Origin: Bacteroidota bacterium
GTDB taxonomy: Bacteria > Bacteroidota > Bacteroidia > Bacteroidales > ML635J-15
Assembly: GCA_051747965.1 (NCBI GenBank)
Contig: JBNJGS010000003.1
Coordinates: forward strand, 7,125-71,124
Reading direction: 5' to 3'
Length of the DNA: 64,000 bases
This document shows, in pieces, positions 1-58,684 of this stretch (position 1 is the first letter of the stretch; each line of letters opens with the position of its first letter). Below the pieces are notes generated by a model, which was given only the letters and a program-made list of their open reading frames with translations, searched no databases and was not told the DNA's origin. A program made the translations under genes and the position numbers.

Positions 1-533
1 CGGTAGAATATCCGGCCAGTCTGATGCTTGTGTCAAGCATGAACCCATGCCCCTGCGGATATTATAATCATCCGACCCGGGATTGTTCCTGTTCACCGGG
101 CAGAATTCAAAACTATCTGTCAAAAATTTCGGGACCACTTCTTGACAGGATTGATATCCACATGGAAGTAGTACCGGTAGAGTTTGATAAATTATCTTCA
201 GATCCGCCCGGGGAAAACAGTTCCGATATACGCAAAAGGGTGATACGTGCCCGTGAAGTACAATCAGAGCGATTTAAACAGAACAAAAACATGTTCAGCA
301 ATGCACAAATGACATCAAAAGTGATGCAAAAGTATTGCGCCGTAGACCAGGCAGCCAATTTACTTTTAAAAACTGCTATGGAGAAGCTGGATTTATCAGC
401 CAGGGCCTATGACAGAATTTTGAAAGTTTCCCGAACGATTGCAGATATGGAAGCATCAGAATCCATCCGCAGCGAACACATATCAGAAGCAATTCAGTAC
501 CGTAGCCTGGACAGAAGTACCTGGGGATCATAG
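1..533 (+). CDS. YifB/ComM family Mg-chelatase-like AAA+ ATPase, C-terminal part (5'-truncated by window edge)
   Basis: Frame is open from the window start; motifs MNPCPCGY, SGPLLDRID, LSARAYDRILKVSRTIAD and EAIQYR are typical of the YifB/ComM C-terminus. Confidence 0.93.
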   Translation, partial: VEYPASLMLVSSMNPCPCGYYNHPTRDCSCSPGRIQNYLSKISGPLLDRIDIHMEVVPVEFDKLSSDPPGENSSDIRKRVIRAREVQSERFKQNKNMFSNAQMTSKVMQKYCAVDQAANLLLKTAMEKLDLSARAYDRILKVSRTIADMEASESIRSEHISEAIQYRSLDRSTWGS

Positions 534-654
534 CACTAACCAGGTCGTGCAAAAAGAGGAGTTTTCTTATATCAGGCTGTTTCCGCCAAGGTAAAGATAT
601 TGATATATAATAAAATACCAAACAACATTGCTGCAATCCTTGTAAAATGTGTTA

Positions 655-671
655 ATTTTATGCCATAAAAT
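655..671. promoter_or_regulatory. Perfect inverted repeat ATTTTATG-C-CATAAAAT, candidate operator
   Basis: 8-bp arms around a 1-nt centre, ending 11 nt upstream of the ATG at 683. Confidence 0.35.
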
Positions 672-682
672 ACGGCTGCACT

Positions 683-3067
683 ATGAATCATCTTGACGAT
701 TATCAATTCAAAGGGAAGAGGGCACTTGTCCGCGTTGATTTCAATGTTCCGCTGAACGATTCCGGAGAAATTACTGATGATACCCGGATTGTAACAGCCA
801 TCCCCACATTGCAGAAAATATTGACCGAGGGAGGTTCTGTCATCATCATGACCCATTTGGGTCGTCCGAAAGGAAAACATGATGATTCCCTGAGTGTCAG
901 AAGGATTTCAGATTATGTTGAGCGCATGCTGGGCAGGGAAATAAAAATAGCTCCTGATTGCACGGGTAAGGAGACAAAGAAAATGGCTGACAAGCTCAGG
1001 CCCGGTGAGGTATTGATGCTTGAGAATCTCCGTTTTCACAAAGAAGAGGTCATTGGAGATGAGGCATTTGCCAGGAAACTGGCTGATCTGGGAGATGTGT
1101 ATGTAAACAATGCTTTTGGTACAGCGCATCGTGCCCATGCCTCTACCTGCACAATTGCCAAATTCTTTCCATATGACAAGCTGTTCGGGTATTTGGTTGA
1201 ATCTGAGATAAAGGAAATTGACAGTTTGCTGAAGGAGGCAAAATCACCATTTACTGCCATCATTGGCGGAGCCAAAATATCTACAAAGATCAACATCATC
1301 GAAGCTTTGCTGGAAAAGGTTGACAATCTGATCATTGGTGGAGGAATTGTATTTACCTTTTTGAAAGCCAAAGGACTGGAAGTCGGGAAATCTCTTGTTG
1401 ACGATGATTATCTGGATGTAGCAGAGCGTATATTGCGGACTGCCGGCAAACGCGGGGTCAGGGTTTATTTACCGGAAGATATTTTAATAGCAGATGAATT
1501 CAGCAATGAAGCCAATATTGAGCATGTACCTGTCAACGAAATAAAGAAAGACTGGATGGGTATGGATATTGGTGTAAAATCTGCGGAAATATTTGAGCAG
1601 GTGATTATGAAATCAGCAAGCATTTTGTGGAATGGCCCCATGGGTGTATTTGAAATGAATCATTTTGCCTATGGCACGCTGAAAACCGGATTATCGGTAT
1701 CCCGGGCTACAGATAAGGGTGCATATTCTGTTGTTGGCGGAGGAGACAGTATAGCAGCATTGAAAAAATATGCACTGGAACACAAAATATCATACGTATC
1801 AACAGCAGGGGGTGCTTTGCTGGAGTACATTGAAGGGAAGAAGTTACCGAGTATCAAAGCCATCCGGGAGGATCATTCCATTGATGATTATGATTTTCGC
1901 GGCAAGCGTGCTTTGGTGAGGGTGGATTTCAATGTTCCCATGGACGAGAATCACAAAATCACTGATGACACACGTATCCGCACAGCCATCCCCACCATCA
2001 GAAAAATCATGTCAGAGGGAGGCAGTGTAATCATACTCACGCACCTTGGAAGGCCCAATGGCAAACGGGATATGGATTATTCGGTAAAACACATCATTCC
2101 CTATGTTTCAGATCTTTTAGGGACAGAGGTAAAATTTGCAGACAAGTGCCGGGGCGATGAGACAGAAAGAATTGTTAAAGAGCTTAATCCCGGCGATGTA
2201 CTTATGCTGGAAAACCTGCGTTTCACGAATGCAGAAACCGAAGGCTCTGAGAAATTCGCCAAAGAACTGGCCAAACTGGGTGATGTATATGTCAACAATG
2301 CCTTTGGTACAGCACATCGCAAACATGCCTCAACCTACACCATAGCCAGATTCTTCCCTGAAGACAAGATGCTGGGGTATCTCATGGAAAATGAAATGCA
2401 AAACATTAACCGCATATTGTACAAAGGAGAGAGACCATTTACAGCAGTTATCGGCGGAGCTAAGATATCCACAAAAATAGACATTGTCCTTGCATTGATT
2501 GAACGGGTGGATAATCTGATTATTGGCGGAGGCCTGGCCTTCAGCTTTATCAAAGCCATGGGTGGCGATGTTGGTGATTCTCTGGTTGACGAGGAGTCAC
2601 TTGATAAAGCCAAAGAGATTCTTAATCTTACCGCCCGCAGCAATGTAAAGCTATATTTACCGACCGATTGCCTTATTGGTGACGGAAAAACCAACAATGT
2701 AAAGATCAGACATTCTCACATCAATCGCATCCCAAAAGGATGGCGTGGTCTGGATATTGGTGTAAAAAGTGCTGAAACCTTCACCAGGGTCATTGAAAAC
2801 TCAAAATCCATTTTATGGAACGGCCCCATGGGTGTATTTGAAATGCCACATTTCAGTAATGGTACAATAAAAATTGCTTTGGCAACAGCCAGGGCAACAG
2901 ATTTTGGTGCGTTTTCACTGGTTGGTGGTGGTGATTCCATTGCAGCTCTGAAGCGTTATGGATTATCGCACAAAATTTCATATATTTCAACAGCCGGAGG
3001 AGCTTTACTGGAATACATTGAAGGAAAAGAATTGCCAAGTATAAAAGCTGTGAGAACCAAAATCTGA
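683..3067 (+). CDS. pgk: Tandem double phosphoglycerate kinase (PGK-PGK fusion, 794 aa)
   Basis: Two complete colinear PGK domains (aa ~1-396 and ~397-794). Each has RVDFNVP, DDTRI, HLGRP, LENLRF, AFGTAHR, GGAKISTKI, WNGPMGVFE, GGGDS and STAGGALLEY; no stop between them. Confidence 0.95.
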   Translation: MNHLDDYQFKGKRALVRVDFNVPLNDSGEITDDTRIVTAIPTLQKILTEGGSVIIMTHLGRPKGKHDDSLSVRRISDYVERMLGREIKIAPDCTGKETKKMADKLRPGEVLMLENLRFHKEEVIGDEAFARKLADLGDVYVNNAFGTAHRAHASTCTIAKFFPYDKLFGYLVESEIKEIDSLLKEAKSPFTAIIGGAKISTKINIIEALLEKVDNLIIGGGIVFTFLKAKGLEVGKSLVDDDYLDVAERILRTAGKRGVRVYLPEDILIADEFSNEANIEHVPVNEIKKDWMGMDIGVKSAEIFEQVIMKSASILWNGPMGVFEMNHFAYGTLKTGLSVSRATDKGAYSVVGGGDSIAALKKYALEHKISYVSTAGGALLEYIEGKKLPSIKAIREDHSIDDYDFRGKRALVRVDFNVPMDENHKITDDTRIRTAIPTIRKIMSEGGSVIILTHLGRPNGKRDMDYSVKHIIPYVSDLLGTEVKFADKCRGDETERIVKELNPGDVLMLENLRFTNAETEGSEKFAKELAKLGDVYVNNAFGTAHRKHASTYTIARFFPEDKMLGYLMENEMQNINRILYKGERPFTAVIGGAKISTKIDIVLALIERVDNLIIGGGLAFSFIKAMGGDVGDSLVDEESLDKAKEILNLTARSNVKLYLPTDCLIGDGKTNNVKIRHSHINRIPKGWRGLDIGVKSAETFTRVIENSKSILWNGPMGVFEMPHFSNGTIKIALATARATDFGAFSLVGGGDSIAALKRYGLSHKISYISTAGGALLEYIEGKELPSIKAVRTKI

Positions 3068-3098
3068 TTAGCTTTGTTAGGTAAGAAAAAGAAATAAT

Positions 3099-4394
3099 AT
3101 GTCATTAGAAGAACTCCCAAAAATTCAGGATGCCGATTTAGAAGGCAAGGTAGTACTGGTAAGATTTGACCATAACGTGGTAAAGGAAGGCATCATACAT
3201 GATCCTTACCGTATTGATATGACAATTGGCACGATGTATCACATCAACGCCAAGGGTGGTAAAATCATCATGATGACCCATGTCGGCAGACCCAGGGACA
3301 AGGAAACCGGTGAAATCACGATTGATGACGACGCATCGGTACAACCCATTGTTGATTACCTGAACAATAAACTGCACATCAACATTAAGGTACCTGAATT
3401 TGTCCCTCATGGCAAGAAAGGTTATCTGGGCATTGAAACCTCGATCAATCATCACATCAGGGATTTACGAAATGGAGATATAGACGGCATTTATCTTCCC
3501 AATACGCGTTGGTTTGCCGGAGAGGAAGCAGGTGGTGAAGATGCAGAACGTTTTGCTCTGCAGCTGGCAGGCCTGGCCGATGTATTTGTGAATGATGCTT
3601 TTGGCTCATGGCAACCCCATGCTTCTACAGTGGGAGTAAACAAGTTTTTACCCAATTATGCCGGCTACCTGATGCAAAAGGAAATTGCAAATCTTAACCG
3701 GATATATAATGCAAAATCGCCTTTTGTTGCTGTGGTGGCAGGAAGCAAGATGGATACAAAAATTGATTCACTGTATGCCCTGCTCGAGATTGCTGACAAG
3801 CTGGTGCTGGGCGGGGTCATATATAATGCATACCTGTGTGCCAAATATGATATCAGCATCAAAGGTGTCAACGAAGAAAATCTGAAACTTGCCAAAGACT
3901 TTGTTAAGCATGCAGAAAAACACAAGGATAAAATTATGGAACTTTCCTGTATTGTTGAGTCAGATACACTTGATGGCAAGAAAGAAGGCAAATACCGAAA
4001 GCACAATGTGAAAGATTTGAAAGCAGGCCAGGAACTCAATTATGTACTGGATGTAGCTCCCAGCTCATTTGAAGACGAAGAAGTGAAAGATGTGTTTCTT
4101 TCAGCGAAGACAATTTTCATCAATGCCGTAATGGGATTTACGCCCCATTTCAATGACGGCACCATGGCTCTTGATCAGCTAACCGACTCCAACCCTGAAG
4201 CTGTCAAACTATATGGTGGTGGAGATACCATGCAGGAACTCAAACGCCTGCTGCCCGGCCTTTATATTGTAGCCCTTGACAATCCCAAATACTACATTTT
4301 CACGGGCGGAGGAGCTGTTTTGAAAGCAATACAGGAGGGCACTTATCAAGGCCTTGAACCTGTTAAAGCACTGATGCAAAAATACAAGAAGTGA
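3099..4394 (+). CDS. Divergent phosphoglycerate kinase-family protein (431 aa)
   Basis: PGK-like motifs RFDHNV, HVGRP, PNTRWF, VNDAFG, GSKMDTKI, GGGDT, FTGGGA; several canonical residues altered. Confidence 0.88.
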   Translation: MSLEELPKIQDADLEGKVVLVRFDHNVVKEGIIHDPYRIDMTIGTMYHINAKGGKIIMMTHVGRPRDKETGEITIDDDASVQPIVDYLNNKLHINIKVPEFVPHGKKGYLGIETSINHHIRDLRNGDIDGIYLPNTRWFAGEEAGGEDAERFALQLAGLADVFVNDAFGSWQPHASTVGVNKFLPNYAGYLMQKEIANLNRIYNAKSPFVAVVAGSKMDTKIDSLYALLEIADKLVLGGVIYNAYLCAKYDISIKGVNEENLKLAKDFVKHAEKHKDKIMELSCIVESDTLDGKKEGKYRKHNVKDLKAGQELNYVLDVAPSSFEDEEVKDVFLSAKTIFINAVMGFTPHFNDGTMALDQLTDSNPEAVKLYGGGDTMQELKRLLPGLYIVALDNPKYYIFTGGGAVLKAIQEGTYQGLEPVKALMQKYKK

Positions 4395-4401
4395 TCAACG
4401 G

Positions 4402-6918
4402 TTAGAATTTTGCTGTAAACTGGTACGACACAGATCTGGGAGGCATCATATTTCCGGGTCTTTGCACCAGCTCTCTGTTGAACAGGTTTCTGATAACTAC
4501 TGAGCTCTTAATGTTTTCATTCATCTGCCAGCCTGCATGCATATCCCATGTAAGCATAGGCCTGTATTTGTTGTATGCATAATAATCTGTATAACCCGGC
4601 AAGACAGCATTGTTAAACATTTGTTCCCCGGGATCAGATGAGACAAAGATATTGTCCACTGCCAGCACAGGGCTGTGATAAATCATTGATATTCCTGCAG
4701 ACAAGACACTATACTCAAGGATGACATTGCCTTTTACACTGTGTTTGTATCTGTATTTCAGATAATCTGTCTCTCTGCTTTTTGTGGCATAAATCTCTTC
4801 CTTGTCAGCTTCATTGTCGTAAAGATTTACCGGGCTGAGATAGGTATATCCGGCAAACAGGGTGGCATCAAGCCCTCTGAAGATTTCTCCGCTTGCAGAA
4901 ACTGAAAAATCCATCCCGATGATTCTAACATCACCAATATTCATTGACTGGAATCCAATATTATCTGCCGTTGGCATCACAGTATCCGGAAGTGGCATAT
5001 ATGTTTCGGTATCAAAATATCCGAAAGAGAACTCCATCATGTTGTTGTATCTGGAATAAAAAGCCGAGATATCTGCAAAGCCTTTCCAGTCTCTACCTAT
5101 GCGAAAACCCTGGCGTCCGCCTACTTCTGCATTCCAACCTGTTTCGCTCTCCAGACGGGGGTTCGGAAAGACATTTAACATACCGGCAAAGGCAGTTGCT
5201 GTGTATTTTTCTGCTATACTGGGAAATCTATATCCCTGCCCAAAGCTTGCCCGCAGGTTTGTGTATTCCGCCAGGCGATAATTCGCTCCTGCCCTGAAAA
5301 CAGGTTTCACAGGTATTTCCATGCTTTTATTACCTATTTTAATATCAACCATGGATTCTGTTTGTGTTGTATCCACCCGATAATATTCACCCCTTACACC
5401 AACTGAGGTTTTCAGGTTTCCAAAATCATTGTCCACCTGCACATAGGCGGCCAGATTATTGCTGAAATGATTGCCATAGAGGTTGGATTCCACCTCTGCG
5501 TAGGAATTTACTCCACCGGTCGCAATTTTTGTGTAATCGCCAAGATCTGTTTGATACCGGTACTCGCCGTAATATATTTCACTATTGTTGTTTTTTGTGC
5601 TATCAGAGGGTATCCGGTTTTGAACTCTGTAATATCTGGTGCGGATACTGTATCTGGAGCCGTTGTCCTTATAATAATAAATAAAGGGGTCAATATTGAA
5701 CCTGATCCCTTCGTTGGGATTTGTTGCCCCTTCCATGCTCTGTAACGGCCGGATGACGATTGAATCATTACCACTTGTATCTGCAAGTGTTTCAGAAGAC
5801 CACAGCAGGAAATCAGATTTTTTACCACCCATTAAGTTTGCATTGACACCATAGGCGAGGCCGTCGATTTTTTTACTCCGGAAACGCATATTTGTGTTTA
5901 AGCGGGTTCTTTTATTGTAATTATCAGTACGATATCCTTCATCAACATAGTGCTTTCCTGCCAGAACAAAATCAAAATTCCCGAACTGCTGCTGATGAGC
6001 AAAACTCAATCCTCCGAACATGGGCTTATTTACCCAGTAGAATACTTCTTCGCGCACAGGAACTGATACCTCGCACTGGTCCTCCTGATAAAAATTTTCA
6101 TTGGTATAGAGTCTTGTATCCCAGGTTTTTCCATTGAGTTGTTTGATTGGATTTCCGGGTTGATTATAAAAGCCTACATTGTAAATAATCTTTGTCTGTG
6201 TTTTTTCTGTAGGATAAGCTGTACGCAGGTTAATGACACCATTCATGGCAGAGGATCCATACAGAACAGAAGATGCACCTTTGATGACTTCAACCTGAGA
6301 TACATTTTCCACAGGCAGGTAATCCCATTTCACATTGCCTGCATCGGCGGCAATGATAGGCAACTCGTCCACAAGCACAAGCACCCGGCTGCCGGCACCG
6401 TATGACCAGCCACTTCCCCCGCGTATGCTGGGTTGCTGATCATTGACATCAACACCGGGTATTTTATTTATGGCATCCTCCATATCATTGGTGTTTGTAT
6501 TTTCAATCATTTTTGGCTTGATAACTTCCATAGAAACTGTCACCTCCGAAAGTTTCTGCTCATATTTGGAAGCACTCACTACAACTTCTTCGATGATTTC
6601 TGCTTTCTCATGAAGGGTGACATTTTCAACAATGGTATCGTTTTCTGCAATTGTCATATTTTTTTCTACGGTATTGTATCCCACGTACTTGTATTTCACA
6701 AGGTAATCACCGGGTTTCAGCTCAAAGCTAAAATCACCGTCAAAGTCTGTGATTCCTCCATCTGTGAAATCCGTATCATCCTGCTCAATCATCACATTGA
6801 CACCATAAAGCGGTTCATTTTCAGGGTCTGTAACAGATCCCCGGAACAAACCCGTTTGTGCCCAGGCATTGGTAATCCCCAGACAAACTGATATTGTCAG
6901 AAAAAGTAGCTTTTGCAT
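4402..6918 (-). CDS. TonB-dependent receptor with N-terminal carboxypeptidase-regulatory-like domain
   Basis: Signal peptide MQKLLFL..AWAQ, N-terminal beta-sandwich, plug motifs (IRGG, VEVIKGASSVLYGSSAMNGVIN), NPRLESE, C-terminal F; start refined to ATG 6918. Confidence 0.92.
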   Translation of the reverse strand: MQKLLFLTISVCLGITNAWAQTGLFRGSVTDPENEPLYGVNVMIEQDDTDFTDGGITDFDGDFSFELKPGDYLVKYKYVGYNTVEKNMTIAENDTIVENVTLHEKAEIIEEVVVSASKYEQKLSEVTVSMEVIKPKMIENTNTNDMEDAINKIPGVDVNDQQPSIRGGSGWSYGAGSRVLVLVDELPIIAADAGNVKWDYLPVENVSQVEVIKGASSVLYGSSAMNGVINLRTAYPTEKTQTKIIYNVGFYNQPGNPIKQLNGKTWDTRLYTNENFYQEDQCEVSVPVREEVFYWVNKPMFGGLSFAHQQQFGNFDFVLAGKHYVDEGYRTDNYNKRTRLNTNMRFRSKKIDGLAYGVNANLMGGKKSDFLLWSSETLADTSGNDSIVIRPLQSMEGATNPNEGIRFNIDPFIYYYKDNGSRYSIRTRYYRVQNRIPSDSTKNNNSEIYYGEYRYQTDLGDYTKIATGGVNSYAEVESNLYGNHFSNNLAAYVQVDNDFGNLKTSVGVRGEYYRVDTTQTESMVDIKIGNKSMEIPVKPVFRAGANYRLAEYTNLRASFGQGYRFPSIAEKYTATAFAGMLNVFPNPRLESETGWNAEVGGRQGFRIGRDWKGFADISAFYSRYNNMMEFSFGYFDTETYMPLPDTVMPTADNIGFQSMNIGDVRIIGMDFSVSASGEIFRGLDATLFAGYTYLSPVNLYDNEADKEEIYATKSRETDYLKYRYKHSVKGNVILEYSVLSAGISMIYHSPVLAVDNIFVSSDPGEQMFNNAVLPGYTDYYAYNKYRPMLTWDMHAGWQMNENIKSSVVIRNLFNRELVQRPGNMMPPRSVSYQFTAKF

Positions 6919-6942
6919 AATCCCCGTCCATTGATTACAAAA

Positions 6943-6950
6943 CAAATGTA
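6943..6950 (-). promoter_or_regulatory. Bacteroidota sigma70 -7 element (TACATTTG)
   Basis: Matches TAnnTTTG, 24 nt upstream of the TonB receptor ATG. Confidence 0.6.
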
Positions 6951-7051: not shown

Positions 7052-10000
7052 TTAACGCATCAGGGTAACTTTCCCTGTTCGCTCATAGACATTTCCGTAA
7101 TAATCTTCAAATTCCAGCATCCAGGTATAGACACCTTCCGGGCATTCCTGCTTGTTCATTGTACCATCCCATCCATCATCGTGATGATCAGACACAAAAA
7201 CTTTTTCACCCCAGCGGTTATAAACTTCCAGGTGATAGGATTCAAGATCAATTCCTGAAACGACAATGCCAAATTCCTCATTCACATCATCATAGTTGGG
7301 TGAGAATCCGGTAGGTGCAAATACCAACAACTCCCCTGCCACAGTCAGTTCAACCCGGGCAGTATCCTTACAGCCAAAGAGTGATTCAGTGGCAAGTTGC
7401 ACATTATATCTGCCGGGCTGGCTATAAGAATGCTGTGGATTTTCCTGTTCAGATAGGGTTCCGTCGGCAAAGTCCCAGTGATAAAAATAACCTCCGTCAG
7501 TATAATTTGTAAAAGTAACCAGGGGACTGTTGAGCGAAACATTGATCTTTGATGGCTCAAACTCCGCATCTGGTCGTGGATGTACAGTTATGGCCACATC
7601 ATCTCTGTTTCGGCATCCGTCGGTTGAGGTTACCAAAAGGTTGACATGGTATGTGGTGGCATTAAAGAATGTGTGTACCGGTTGTTTGTCAAATGAAAGG
7701 TTTTCCACATCCCCATCATCAAAATTCCAGCGGTATTCCTGACCAATATCCGGGCTACCTTCATTAAAATGTACGGTAAGCGGCTGACAACCTTCGGTTA
7801 CATCAGCATTGATTGCTATCGGTGGCAATTCCCGGGTTTCAACAGGATATTCAATATAAACACTGTCAAAGTGACAAGCATCCCAGGCTGTGAAGGCAAA
7901 TACAGAGTCTGTTTCTGGTGTCACAACAATTTCAGAACCTTCAATCAGGCTGTCATTCATATACACTTCATATGGCCAGCCACCGCCGCCTCTTAAGTTC
8001 ATGCTGAATGTCACCTCATCTCCCGGACAAACAGTATCGCGGTTGGCAATGACATCAAATTCCAGAGAATCCAGCACAGTGACTGTAAAGTAAGATGTAT
8101 CACTGATACAGCCTGTAGCATCCAAAACAAATGCTCCGTATTCTGTTGTTTCCTGCGGATATACTTCAATAGGATCCCCCATCATCCCGTGATGTGTCCA
8201 GAAGACATCATAGGGTGGCACACCACCGGTAATCATATTGAATCCAATGGTATCTGTCTGACCATAACATATGGTTGGGTCGTCAAGTGCCACAGTGGTG
8301 ATGGGTTCCGGTTGCATGACCGTATCAGAAATCACAAAATGACAATAATGATCGTCGGTAAGAGTGACGGTATATACGCCTGCGGGAACATTCTGCAAAT
8401 CTTCTTCCCAGGAGCCGTTTGACCAGCTATAGTGATATGGTGGAGTTCCGCCGGAGGCAGTGATTTCTACAGACCCGTCAGAATATCCACCGCAAGAAGC
8501 GTCGGTGGCCGTGATGGAAGCCGACAAAGGGGCATCCGGCTCTATGATTTCTACTGTATCATAAGCTACGCAATCGTGATTATCTGTAATGCTTACAGCA
8601 TAGGTACCCGGGTCCAGGGTATCAATGCTCTGGCCGATTTCACCATTGGACCAGTGATAATAATATGGTTCTGTTCCTCCGTAGACGTTTACTTCAGCCC
8701 AGCCATTGCCTTCCCCGTAGCATCTGACATCTTCATGTTCAATTTCTGCTGTTAGAGGCAGGTCAGGTTCGTCTATCTGTACATAGGCATAGGTCTGGCA
8801 ATTGTTTTGGTCGGTGATGGTAACAATATATATTCCGGCTTCTACATCTTCAAGGTCTTCAATACCGTCACCATTATTCCATTGATAATCATATGGTGGT
8901 GTTCCCCCGGTCACGCTTAGATCAATACTGCCATTTTCAAATCCGTGACATGATACATCTTCGGCCTGTATATTGGCAACAACAGGTTCGGGTTCAATTA
9001 CCACCATGGTATGTGAGAGGTCACAGCCATTGGCATCTGTAATGGTAATGGTGTAATTTCCGGCCGGAATATTCATCAAATCTTCTGTCAGCATGCCATT
9101 GTCCCATTCGTAGTAATAGGGTGGTGTTCCGCCGGCGGCAGTAACATCCAGGGCGCCATCATAACCACCATGACAGGAAACATTGGTAAATTCATAAGAC
9201 ATGCTAAGTGGCTCATCCGGCTCATCGATAAATACAGAGTCTTCATGCAGGCACCCCACAGAATCTGTGATGGTAAGATAATGCCAACCGGCATACACAT
9301 TCTCCACATTTTGCTGATCAACACCAGGCGGATCCCAGTAATATCCGTGTGGCAGGGCACCGCCACCAGATTCAGCATACAGGTTGCCGGTAGCTTCCCC
9401 ATGACAAAGTACATCATCCCCGTCGGTTTCAGACCAAATCGGTGGATAAAGGTGTGTCACATTCAGTTCCGAGGTGACTTCGCATCCGTACACATCAGAA
9501 ACTGTGACAAAGTAATATCCTGCAGGTACGTAAATGCTGTCGACAGGGTCCATATGTGTATTGACTACTCCGGTAGAATATTCAAAGGTGTAAGGCCCGG
9601 TTGAGTTGAGTGCTGTTACCGTAATAACTCCGGTAGTATCACCGAAGCAGAGAATATCATTACCATCAATTTCCATATCAAGTTCAGGCAGAGGAATGAT
9701 ATTGACTACATCCTGAACGGAGTCATCATCTTCATAAAAACCGGCCATCTCCCAGGTTTCATCAAACCAGTTGATGGGGATATAACCCAGCGGCACCGAT
9801 CCTTCCAGCAAAGGTCCGATTTCAAAGGGTCCGATAGAAATATCTTTTGCACCGTTTTTGGCTGTATCTACATAAACATATTCATCTTTTGCCAGGTAAT
9901 CTGATAAATCAACCTCAGGCACATGATAGCCCGGGGCACTGGCTTCAAGGTATTGTGTTTCTCCTGTTTCCGGGTCTTCGTAGGTAACCGGGAGGTTAAA

Positions 10001-11350
10001 TGCCGGTATTTCATTGGATTTGAATGGTGTTTCCAGCACAATTTCTATGGAGGCCCAGACTACGGAATAAAGGAAGTCGAAAGCCAGGGAGTCCCAGGTA
10101 TGATTGGTAAAACTCGGCGTAATATCATATTCTACACTGATGTCCATAGAGTCCCAGTTGTGGCAGGGATAGGTCACATTCAGGTCATTGTTGACTTCAA
10201 AGGTAATATCGGAAGCATCTCCGGCATCCACAACATTATCCCCATCGTTGGGATCGGTGACTGTATATGGCATACTGACCGGAAATCCGAGTGTTGTCCA
10301 GATGGTTGGGCAGAAATCAAATTCCTGTGTCATCCAGCTGTTCATATCAAAAGAAATCTGAAGAATATAATAATCAATGATTGCTGATACAGGACCTACA
10401 TCATAGTTTATGGTTCCTCCTTCAATGATATCAATCACCTGTGAAATTGCCGGTCCGGTGGGCGGTGGAATCAGATTTGCGATGGCACTTAGGAATGTCA
10501 GTACATTCAGATTGAAGTGTATCCAGTTATCCTGTCCGTAGGCATGCAGACACTGGGTTTGCGGGTCGAGCCAGTCAGTTGTTTCCACATAGGGCAGATC
10601 GATTTCTCCGGTCAAGCCGATGCCAAACCAATCCGGTATGATAACAGGCAGAATGTCATCATCACAAAAAGCAGGCAGGCCGGTAACGGGGTCAAGACAA
10701 GGATACACAACCTCTCCGGTGGCACCGTTAAGATAAAATATAGCAATCGAATCGTGTGGGAGAGGTTCGCCGGGTACTGGTTCAGAGGGTATGTTAAAGG
10801 AAGGGATCAGGGGTATGGTTGTTGTTCCAAAGAGTTCTACCACCAGGTCCATATGCATTCCCAGGCCAAACTCCAGATCCAGGGCAATGACCCCTGCCTC
10901 GGGAAAGTGTGTATCAAGATAATAATCATCCTGCACGTCATACCATGTATTGATGGTAACAGTTTCACCGTGGTCGAAGCTGTAATCATCAGGAAAATCA
11001 AGTGTAATTTCTACCGGATAATTGATATCAATCCATCCCAGTGTAAAGCCATGGATACTAAAAGTTGACCTGAATACACCCCAGAAGCCATAGTCCAGGC
11101 CCATGCCAAATGTCTCGCCGAAAAATTCTGTATAAGCTCCGATATGGTCCGACTCGTTCCATTCAAGATTGAAGATATCATAGTCAAAATCGAGGCTGAA
11201 TGCATCACCGGGCCCCCACATATCCTGGTCTTCTGTTTCGTAATTAATGTTATGTATAAGCACATTATCCGGGTTCTGTGAAAATACAGCAAATGGCAGC
11301 ATCAGCAAAAAGCTGCAGGCAATCAGGCTGACAAATTTTGGTTTTTTCAT
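7052..11350 (-). CDS. Large T9SS cargo: unrecognised N-terminal domain + SprB repeats + 2 PKD domains + type-B (gliding motility-associated) CTD
   Basis: Signal peptide; six C-x-G..DG..GGTPPY.Y.W SprB-like repeats; PKD motifs WNFDDG and WDFADG; CTD APTGFSPN..YNRWGE..GWDG..GVY..G.VTLMR. Confidence 0.9.
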   Translation of the reverse strand: MKKPKFVSLIACSFLLMLPFAVFSQNPDNVLIHNINYETEDQDMWGPGDAFSLDFDYDIFNLEWNESDHIGAYTEFFGETFGMGLDYGFWGVFRSTFSIHGFTLGWIDINYPVEITLDFPDDYSFDHGETVTINTWYDVQDDYYLDTHFPEAGVIALDLEFGLGMHMDLVVELFGTTTIPLIPSFNIPSEPVPGEPLPHDSIAIFYLNGATGEVVYPCLDPVTGLPAFCDDDILPVIIPDWFGIGLTGEIDLPYVETTDWLDPQTQCLHAYGQDNWIHFNLNVLTFLSAIANLIPPPTGPAISQVIDIIEGGTINYDVGPVSAIIDYYILQISFDMNSWMTQEFDFCPTIWTTLGFPVSMPYTVTDPNDGDNVVDAGDASDITFEVNNDLNVTYPCHNWDSMDISVEYDITPSFTNHTWDSLAFDFLYSVVWASIEIVLETPFKSNEIPAFNLPVTYEDPETGETQYLEASAPGYHVPEVDLSDYLAKDEYVYVDTAKNGAKDISIGPFEIGPLLEGSVPLGYIPINWFDETWEMAGFYEDDDSVQDVVNIIPLPELDMEIDGNDILCFGDTTGVITVTALNSTGPYTFEYSTGVVNTHMDPVDSIYVPAGYYFVTVSDVYGCEVTSELNVTHLYPPIWSETDGDDVLCHGEATGNLYAESGGGALPHGYYWDPPGVDQQNVENVYAGWHYLTITDSVGCLHEDSVFIDEPDEPLSMSYEFTNVSCHGGYDGALDVTAAGGTPPYYYEWDNGMLTEDLMNIPAGNYTITITDANGCDLSHTMVVIEPEPVVANIQAEDVSCHGFENGSIDLSVTGGTPPYDYQWNNGDGIEDLEDVEAGIYIVTITDQNNCQTYAYVQIDEPDLPLTAEIEHEDVRCYGEGNGWAEVNVYGGTEPYYYHWSNGEIGQSIDTLDPGTYAVSITDNHDCVAYDTVEIIEPDAPLSASITATDASCGGYSDGSVEITASGGTPPYHYSWSNGSWEEDLQNVPAGVYTVTLTDDHYCHFVISDTVMQPEPITTVALDDPTICYGQTDTIGFNMITGGVPPYDVFWTHHGMMGDPIEVYPQETTEYGAFVLDATGCISDTSYFTVTVLDSLEFDVIANRDTVCPGDEVTFSMNLRGGGGWPYEVYMNDSLIEGSEIVVTPETDSVFAFTAWDACHFDSVYIEYPVETRELPPIAINADVTEGCQPLTVHFNEGSPDIGQEYRWNFDDGDVENLSFDKQPVHTFFNATTYHVNLLVTSTDGCRNRDDVAITVHPRPDAEFEPSKINVSLNSPLVTFTNYTDGGYFYHWDFADGTLSEQENPQHSYSQPGRYNVQLATESLFGCKDTARVELTVAGELLVFAPTGFSPNYDDVNEEFGIVVSGIDLESYHLEVYNRWGEKVFVSDHHDDGWDGTMNKQECPEGVYTWMLEFEDYYGNVYERTGKVTLMR
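8303..9679 (-). repeat. Array of ~6 SprB-type protein repeats (~75 aa each)
   Basis: Units begin ILCFG, VLCHG, VSCHG, VSCHG, VRCYG, ASCGG, each followed by a GG.PPY.Y.W-like segment and Y.VTITD..GC; boundaries approximate. Confidence 0.85.
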
Positions 11351-11355
11351 ATCAA

Positions 11356-11904
11356 TCACCTCTCTATTATATCAGCAGACAACAGGCTGCTCATAATTGG
11401 TTTCAGTACGGTTTTTTTTAAACTTGCCGGATAATTTGCATTCAACCAGATGGTATAATTGTAACTTCCGGCAAACATCATTTTTCTTTCAAACTCTACC
11501 CCCTTTGCTTCAAAGCTGAGGGTATATATGACGCCACTCAACCCGGAACTCAATTCCACTTCTTTTCTGTCAATAAATTTCACCCCCTGGCTTTCAAAAT
11601 GCTCTTTGGTCATCACTTTGTCAATCACCGGCCAGCTTGTTCCATCCACATCTTTCACCTGAATACTTGCGCTGGTACCGGGATGGAGATACCCCGGAAT
11701 ATCCTTTGCAAAGACAAAATGCTCTGGCGGAATGATAGCAATGCGCGTATTATCCACACTATCAAGCAAGCTTTTATCATAGGGTTTTTCCTTTATGTCC
11801 TTCAGGTAGTAATCACCTATATCAGGAGCACTGTCTGTGGTATTCTGACCGAATACCACCACAGATAGAAAGACAAATAATCCGCTGACTACAAGTTTTT
11901 TCAT
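11356..11904 (-). CDS. Secreted hypothetical protein (~182 aa)
   Basis: Signal peptide MKKLVVSGLFVFLSVVVFGQ; stop lies 5 nt from the adhesin ATG, suggesting an operon. Confidence 0.8.
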   Translation of the reverse strand: MKKLVVSGLFVFLSVVVFGQNTTDSAPDIGDYYLKDIKEKPYDKSLLDSVDNTRIAIIPPEHFVFAKDIPGYLHPGTSASIQVKDVDGTSWPVIDKVMTKEHFESQGVKFIDRKEVELSSGLSGVIYTLSFEAKGVEFERKMMFAGSYNYTIWLNANYPASLKKTVLKPIMSSLLSADIIER

Positions 11905-57868: not shown

Positions 57869-58684
57869 CTATTTTTTTTCGTAGTAGTCTGTACTCTCAA
57901 ATATTTTATCTGCCGATTGAGCAATAAATCCGGAAAACAAATTCCCTTCAGAATCAGGATAACGCCTTGTGAATTCATAATAAGTCACCGGTACTTCAAA
58001 TGTACCTTCCTTGAAATCTATTCTTTGCAGACTGGCTCTGATACTTGACTGCTCCAGAAGCTTTACAGGATTGCCTTTGATTTCGCCACCGGAATCATTG
58101 ATTACATAGCCCTTGTTTTTAAGAAATTCATTGATTTTTTCAAGCGTATCAAAGTTTTTAAGTCTGTTTACACTGATGGCAAAATGATTTACAGTAAAAC
58201 CAAAAAGATACATCCATGCAGCGTATTCCGATTCTTTGCGCAGGCGGCTGTAAACGCTGTAAGACGGCAAATCATCCCACAAATTACCGGCTGTCAGAAG
58301 CTGCTCACCATGCAAAATATCAACAGGTACTTTAGCAAGCATCTCATCCACCATAGACTGGACATACTGGCTGAATTCTGCAGTTTTTAATTCGGAAATA
58401 AAAATCCTTGGTGCATCTTTCAGGCTCTTGTGCTCATAATGCCGCGCATACAAATGTTTTTGCTCAAATTCATAATCTCCCCTGAGCTGATAACCACGGT
58501 CGATAAACCACTGAGCCAGCACATCAATGCCGGCTTTGGGGTGATCGAAGGTTCTGAATGCAATATGATCATGCACAATGTCTTCTTCCTCCTGTAAAAA
58601 TAAGTCATGTACTTTCTTCACCTCAGGGTTTCTTGTAATATAATCTTCCCAGAGATGATCAAACAAATCAGAAATTTTCTCCAT
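57869..58684 (-). CDS. DUF1338 family protein (2-oxoadipate dioxygenase/decarboxylase HglS-like)
   Basis: DHIAFRT, PRIFISEL, ESEYAAW, NHF, LEQSS, YYEF, ADKIFEST; His-His-Glu metal triad apparent. Confidence 0.85.
   Translation of the reverse strand: MEKISDLFDHLWEDYITRNPEVKKVHDLFLQEEEDIVHDHIAFRTFDHPKAGIDVLAQWFIDRGYQLRGDYEFEQKHLYARHYEHKSLKDAPRIFISELKTAEFSQYVQSMVDEMLAKVPVDILHGEQLLTAGNLWDDLPSYSVYSRLRKESEYAAWMYLFGFTVNHFAISVNRLKNFDTLEKINEFLKNKGYVINDSGGEIKGNPVKLLEQSSIRASLQRIDFKEGTFEVPVTYYEFTRRYPDSEGNLFSGFIAQSADKIFESTDYYEKK

Follow-up and report, generated by a model that had tools for sequence, protein, structure and literature searches.

A tandem phosphoglycerate kinase and a PGK4A-type partner with a rebuilt cofactor pocket form a conserved pair in Bacteroidales

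Phosphoglycerate kinase (PGK; EC 2.7.2.3, PF00162; PDB accession no. 1PHP and 1VPE) is taken to be a single-unit enzyme that works with ATP or GTP. Here, we analyzed two neighboring PGK genes, A and B, in a stretch of 64,000 nucleotides from a Bacteroidota bacterium of the order Bacteroidales (GenBank assembly GCA_051747965.1, contig JBNJGS010000003.1, positions 7,125 to 71,124), hereafter called the window. ORF A (683-3067, plus strand) encodes a tandem PGK-PGK fusion of 794 amino acids with two PF00162 stretches (973.7 bits), and ORF B (3099-4394, plus strand) encodes a divergent, PGK4A-type PGK of 431 amino acids with one such stretch (276.1 bits). A preliminary description of this DNA had placed the pair at 600 to 4394, of which the end stands, whereas A begins at 683. 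The three domains share the fold and the phosphoryl-transfer residues of canonical PGK, and A also has its ADP pocket. However, A holds two whole kinases in one chain, with the replacements D163N and G394A, instead of a single 45-kDa unit, and in B, the base cleft is rebuilt and H169/R170, P338, and E343 are missing. Both the fold and the metabolic step are known already. As far as we found, what is new is the tandem architecture, the occurrence of a PGK4A branch in bacteria, and the pairing of the two. Among the papers listed by literature searches, with most subscription papers outside their coverage, none dealt with any of these three or with a pyrophosphate (PPi)-dependent PGK. The main novelty is the rebuilt cofactor pocket of B, which the preliminary description did not name.

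B resembles PGK4A, in that its signatures RVDHNV, YRID, TH.GRP, SIN.LI.DL, and IYLPNTRWF occur in PGK4A rows of the alignment in the supplement of PMC7826186, of which the N-terminal part was compared. The rows that carry them belong to Selaginella, Physcomitrella (four), Marchantia, Klebsormidium (two), Micromonas, and Ostreococcus, whereas the angiosperm PGK4B-TrmB rows in the same part of the supplement lack them. As far as the available portion of that source goes, its PGK4A block consists of 13 leaves, all eukaryotic, and no function is assigned to it. Also in the supplement, the retention of four PGK4A genes by Physcomitrella and of two by Klebsormidium suggests that early land plants have maintained the function. 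In a tree built without full-length named PGK4A proteins, the bacterial B clade has as its sister a long-branched homologue of 542 amino acids, which shows the same THVNRP variant as the prasinophyte rows.

A further comparison concerns the PPi-dependent kinases, namely, PPi-type phosphofructokinase (PFK), pyruvate phosphate dikinase (PPDK), the PPi-acetate kinase of Entamoeba, and TM0415 of Thermotoga, with which B may share a route that keeps the catalytic residues and alters the nucleoside pocket. In the sections of PMC5931981 at hand, a PPi-dependent enzyme of the ribokinase family is described as having arisen via large residues that fill the ATP pocket, and the earlier PPi-dependent kinases named there are PFK, PPDK, and acetate kinase only, with no member of PGK fold. 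The basic PPi ligands added in TM0415 were not identified in B. If B used polyphosphate (polyP), its reaction would be that of 1,3-diphosphoglycerate:polyphosphate phosphotransferase (EC 2.7.4.17), for which no sequence exists for comparison. In the accessible parts of the respective papers, the original activity is traced to Neurospora (PMC13604480), the enzyme is said never to have been purified (PMC5932413), and a direct transfer to free phosphate from 1,3-bisphosphoglycerate (1,3-BPG) is described as not shown (PMC13604480).

The residues of B were numbered by alignment to pig PGK (1KF0) and counted in 167 Bacteroidales-centered sequences. D23, N25, R38, H62, R65, R122, K215, K219, N336, D374, G395, and G396 are retained in all 167. 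On the nucleoside side, the human enzyme contacts adenine through A214, G238, L256, F291, G312, L313, and V341 and the sugar through P338 and E343, according to the available part of PMC2441801, in which the exchange E343A alone lowers kcat/Km from 9.0e6 to 3.3e4. At these positions, B carries V for G238 (161/167), G for L256 (167/167), V or I for G312 (167/167), and A-V for G337-P338 (167/167), and its V341-E343 loop is two residues shorter and lacks an acidic residue in each of the 166 sequences that could be parsed. Bulk is gained in B at G238, G312, G337, and M311 and lost at L256. In all 91 ordinary PGKs examined, P338 and E343 are retained. H169-R170 is replaced by W-Q in 167 of 167, so that R170, a 3-phosphate ligand in the basic patch for 3-phosphoglycerate (3-PG), is gone. 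Two conserved lysines, at 382 and 409, are specific to B. Set against the contacts of human PGK, these changes indicate that the phosphate-handling part of B is intact and that its nucleoside-holding part is rebuilt. The overall fold is that of a PGK, as the AF2 model (pLDDT, 93.7) has only PGKs among its top Foldseek matches (TM, 0.79 versus 1PHP); an ESM Atlas search returned generic PGK clusters only. The best 120 homologue clusters of B are 71 to 98% identical to it, and B is 33 to 34% identical to either half of A.

A, in turn, consists of two complete PGK domains in one chain. Both modules, D1 (683..1870, residues 1-396) and D2 (1871..3067, residues 397-794), are on the plus strand, retain the substrate and ADP residues, and carry D163N and the hinge change G394A. 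D23, N25, R38, H62, R65, R122, H169, R170, K215, K219, N336, and D374 are present in both, and the adenosine pocket (G238, L256, G312, P338, V341, E343) is intact, the sole difference being a lysine in the F291 column of D2; A is therefore predicted to be an ATP-dependent kinase. Among homologues, D163N is found in 83/154 D1 and 145/154 D2 modules and G394A in 151/154 and 154/154, respectively. Gly394 is a hinge point of PGK, and a side chain there has been hypothesized to alter allostery (PMC3900376, from the part available); the change might bias or regulate A. The AF2 model of the whole chain (pLDDT, 89.4; pTM, 0.58) predicts two well-folded modules with no fixed packing. Module 1 shows decay in some lineages, with N336D in 40 of 154 sequences. 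In 14 genomes of the source family, it is reduced to a degenerate C-terminal domain that is still retained. This reduced form, seen in G028, G030, G009, and 11 more genomes of f1 (families are labeled here by f-numbers), has 640 to 650 amino acids and combines the degenerate C-terminal (nucleotide-side) domain with a full second module; the remnant is possibly a regulatory relic. The double PGK of G019:C122 is interrupted by an in-frame TAA, which leaves open stretches of 570 and 240 amino acids, and B was not found in that genome. G342:C21, from a 94%-complete genome in which B was not found either, has a single-domain PGK with the A-type STAGG hinge, either a pre-duplication state or a reduction.

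The tandem protein is no product of assembly. Because its halves are only 63.8% identical in protein and about 66% in DNA, and because the 794-amino-acid architecture recurs in homologue clusters (at least 120, of 783 to 868 amino acids and 59 to 97% identity), an assembly duplication was ruled out. A also passes the PGK-TPI fusion model NF010569 (977.7 versus a cutoff of 883), but the score comes from the two PGK modules; A lacks the C-terminal TIM domain and tpi lies on another contig, so a PGK-TPI fusion was rejected, and the model is a likely source of misannotation. The GC content of the locus matches that of the genome, and the names of the homologues point to Bacteroidales as the source order. 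A whole-genome search of this 96%-complete genome of an uncultured anaerobe found no PGK domains other than the two modules of A and B, which marks the three as the housekeeping set rather than extras. The preliminary description rightly saw no other glycolytic gene in the window (none among the 47 ORFs scanned) and rightly treated the missing gap and tpi as weak evidence; their absence is uninformative. The gap gene is on contig C24 and tpi on contig C5.

Next, we considered where B occurs. Within the order, 59 of 401 genomes carry it (an even sample, with at most four PGK candidates scored per genome, so that misses are possible), and so do 30 of 201 genomes sampled from Thermodesulfobacteriota, the phylum to which a Syntrophaceae record belongs. 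No other PGK accompanies B in 11 of the 401 order genomes, in 11 of 23 genomes of family f70 (including six of the seven from one small-genome genus, the seventh of which, 63% complete, gave no PGK match), in 3 of 57 genomes of the source family, and in 6 of the 30 B-bearing Thermodesulfobacteriota. These B-only genomes are incomplete assemblies, and the pattern recurs within one genus. A glyceraldehyde-3-phosphate dehydrogenase (GAPDH) with its catalytic motif was present in 5/5 B-only genomes tested. Given that some genomes combine a normal GAPDH with no PGK other than B, repeatedly so within a genus, B quite probably acts on 1,3-BPG/3-PG. B lies behind pgi in nine loci (eight genomes) and ahead of a phosphohexomutase gene in four; in Thermodesulfobacteriota, no conserved neighbors were found except uvrA in three loci.

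Alternatively, B might act on another substrate or in arsenate defense, like the green-algal PGK-like genes that stand beside ArsJ and GAPDH3. B does have the PGK4A signatures, prasinophyte PGK4A genes adjoin ArsJ/GAPDH3 in the portion of PMC7826186 considered, and the 3-phosphate ligand R170 is gone throughout the 167 B sequences. We nevertheless regard this explanation as most unlikely, given that ArsJ was not found in any of five genomes tested, the source genome included, that no arsenic gene occurred among 37 and 71 neighbor proteins scanned, and that the B-only genomes would then hold a GAPDH without a PGK. Moreover, the arsenate-sensitive mutant described in the same portion of that paper was in PGK3, another subfamily.

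The partners of B form a second pattern. Outside the source family, the order sample holds 17 double-PGK genomes in six other families, and all 17 have B. Together with an ordinary PGK, B was never seen in the 401 genomes; it occurs there alone or alongside specialized PGK clades. One of these, a distinct clade with a support of 100, consists of the single canonical-type PGKs of B-bearing Bacteroidales and is found in 31 order genomes: 26 with B, 1 with an adjoining ordinary PGK, and 4 alone. In its members, DFNVPL is followed by a conserved NHNRQ loop, and the TAHR motif is variable; the region is possibly an allosteric site. In G392 (L195:4049-6770), a specialized-clade PGK stands beside an ordinary PGK and B was not found, as though the ordinary enzyme had replaced B. 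In Thermodesulfobacteriota, B does co-occur with normal-looking PGKs. A side product of the searches was P0284, a protein of 883 amino acids in which a PGK is fused to a cofactor-independent phosphoglycerate mutase.

These patterns could in principle be a matter of history, with B an ancient second PGK of ordinary chemistry, the duplication in A a matter of dosage, and the co-occurrence due to shared inheritance. In a 106-row PGK tree, from which thinning had omitted 34 module rows of the source family's loci, every D1 and D2 module falls within a single clade (SH-aLRT, 99), where the modules cluster by family in f76, f98, f32, and part of f23, as gene conversion of near-equivalent copies would give; this grouping suggests either gene conversion or repeated duplication. 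In addition, the exclusion between B and ordinary PGK is suggestive but not statistically significant when independent pairs are compared (5 to 0 with 4 ties; P = 0.06). Such a history is unlikely, however: B and ordinary PGK share none of the genomes of the order sample, B-bearers are scattered among B-free families on an rpoB tree (77 genomes chosen by PGK class; 14 changes), and the fixed hinge and pocket changes imply that the proteins are under differing functional constraints. The preliminary description's view that the locus reflects more than simple gene dosage thus holds, both protein families being strongly conserved.

Our leading interpretation, which we put forward tentatively, is that A and B split the 1,3-BPG/3-PG step as separate enzymes, with B likely working on a non-nucleotide carrier. 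Having kept its phosphoryl-transfer residues, lost the ribose grip, and rebuilt its base pocket, B would use phosphate/PPi or polyP; provided that it is an active PGK, an inorganic carrier is slightly more likely than not. On energetic grounds, B would, if it formed PPi, work mostly toward glycolysis, and the ATP-driven reaction of gluconeogenesis would fall to A. For B-only genomes that make sugar, the uphill direction is harder with PPi than with ATP, which favors polyP or a nucleotide there. The source genome has direction-specific pairs elsewhere, namely, an ATP-type PFK with a class I fructose-1,6-bisphosphatase (FBPase) and pyruvate kinase with PPDK, and another such pair at PGK would be in keeping with them. 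Gene content was compared between 40 B-bearing and 40 B-free genomes; among the B-bearers, a family I soluble pyrophosphatase (PPase) was present in 1 of 8 B-only genomes versus 17 of 32 that also keep a canonical-type PGK.

Several observations weigh against this interpretation. In the 40-versus-40 comparison, neither soluble PPase (18 versus 16), PPK1 (27 versus 24), nor PPDK (38 versus 39) was associated with B, and the predicted loss of pyruvate kinase in B-bearers failed to appear (31 versus 33). The idea that B is coupled to PPDK instead of pyruvate kinase was rejected on the last two counts, and no obligate tie of B to PPK1 or to loss of soluble PPase was found. The source genome has both a soluble and a membrane PPase and no PPi-type PFK, so that PPi from B could be wasted. 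Within B, L256G opens space, so that the pocket may be reshaped rather than closed, and no clear set of new basic PPi-binding residues was found. B-only genomes that make sugar would need B to run uphill, which on energetic grounds is harder with PPi than with ATP; in three B-only f70 genomes, FBPase of class I or III is absent, and a PPi-type PFK is present. Finally, the specialized single PGK occurs alone in four genomes and the single-domain A-type PGK alone in one, which indicates that the partners do not strictly depend on B, and the exclusion test described above falls short of significance.

It is also possible, if somewhat less probable, that B is a nucleotide-dependent PGK with a remodeled pocket, suited to GTP or a pyrimidine nucleotide, to AMP/ADP in place of ADP/ATP, or to weaker ATP binding, so that A and B would still split the step, by cofactor pool or regulation. 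L256G could compensate for G238V, the conserved F347/Y315 of B could stack a base, and the occurrence of B as sole PGK, also in the six Thermodesulfobacteriota, suits a reversible enzyme. E343 is non-essential in human PGK, judging by the part of PMC2441801 available. Yet the base cleft and both sugar contacts are altered together and are near-invariant in the 167 B sequences, which exceeds what a base switch needs, and ordinary PGKs keep P338 and E343 without exception in the set of 91. With the null gene-content tests, L256G, the dispensable E343, the lack of basic ligands, and the uphill need taken together, a changed nucleotide preference ranks close behind an inorganic carrier. As for the boldest version of our leading interpretation, it is a doubtful but possible one: B would be the first PPi- or polyP-forming PGK, possibly the gene for EC 2.7.4.17, and would form with the ATP-dependent A a two-enzyme cycle through 1,3-BPG (ATP + Pi -> ADP + PPi), with B common to anaerobic Bacteroidales, Thermodesulfobacteriota, prasinophyte algae, and bryophytes.

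We then turned to the linkage of the two genes, whose recurrence across Bacteroidales the preliminary description had proposed as a check and which it had read as an operon for a heteromeric complex or a dedicated switching, shunt, or sensing module. A and B are adjacent and co-oriented, with short spacers, in all 13 genomes of the genus. Among the other 44 genomes of the family, 36 have both genes, none of them adjacent; B occurs without A in 3 and A without B in 2, and the remaining 3 gave no match. In six of these family genomes, B lies about 4 kb from A on the opposite strand, and in the three of the six that were checked, the order A, TonB receptor, and reversed B corresponds to that of the window with one segment inverted. 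In the 17 double-PGK genomes outside the family, the genes are adjacent in 2, separated by one or two genes in 2, 79 kb apart in 1, and on separate contigs in 12. The recurrence holds for the genus and for two genomes of other families and fails in the rest of the family; the A-B operon is lineage-specific, not general or obligatory, and would be a convenience of this lineage.

A heteromeric complex, or a channeling or sensing module made from one transcript, would be consistent with the adjacency in the genus and in 2 of the 4 genomes of f98, with the presence of B in all 17 double-PGK genomes outside the family, and with the retention of a degenerate first module in 14 family genomes, as might be expected of a binding or regulatory module. 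Against this stand the separation of the genes in 36 of 36 other family genomes with both and in 15 of 17 outside it, and the many genomes in which B occurs alone or, in 26 order genomes, with a different, single-domain PGK clade. We therefore consider a complex clearly unlikely and a separate action of A and B very probable; the pair is a real, conserved feature but not the heteromeric system first proposed. A complex prediction for module 2 of A (397-794) with B scored 0.00 in two runs and has no bearing for or against binding.

Co-transcription of A and B is plausible from their spacing. The spacer (3068..3098, plus strand) has 31 nucleotides and, as the preliminary description had noted, no terminator-like site; the sole such site between 400 and 4700 sits within B, and 3.8 would be expected in that region by chance. 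The spacer also contains TAGCTTTG (3069-3076), which fits the Bacteroidota -7 promoter consensus TAnnTTTG, with about 0.02 matches expected per 31 nucleotides. A conserved internal promoter for B was nonetheless rejected as a general feature, as all nine other upstream regions compared at the genus level lack the motif. Near-identical contigs are present in salt-lake RNA libraries, and those from three runs (two studies) begin at 3088, 3096, and 3098 with no loose end, that is, at the 5' end of B; although contigs cannot show a start, this weakly hints that B has a transcription start of its own, which also speaks against a single-transcript module. No listed RNA contig bridges 3067-3099, which is uninformative, as 2700-3087 is uncovered at 95% likeness in four runs and library DNA may be present.

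The B branch occurs in about 15% of the sampled genomes of two anaerobic groups and is sometimes their sole PGK, so that metabolic models that score B as an ATP-yielding step may be wrong. If B indeed uses Pi/PPi or polyP, it would add a new fold to the few PPi-dependent kinases, provide a candidate gene for the activity reported in 1971 (EC 2.7.4.17) and a PPi source for anaerobes, and suggest a function for the PGK4A genes of algae and mosses.

The bounds given in the preliminary description were borne out. Upstream, outside the A-B unit, lies the 3' end of yifB (3..533, plus strand; TIGR00368); several relatives in the genus have further genes between yifB and A. Downstream, a convergent TonB-dependent receptor gene (4402-6945, minus strand) belongs to the segment that, by its inversion, brings A and B together or parts them in the family. 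Beyond it, 7052-11359 (minus strand) encodes a 1,435-amino-acid SprB/PKD-repeat protein with a type IX secretion signal, and B stands directly behind its orthologue in other genera of the family. Farther along the window, 57869-58684 (minus strand) encodes a 271-amino-acid protein with a match to the 2-oxoadipate dioxygenase/decarboxylase family (PF07063, 96.5 bits).

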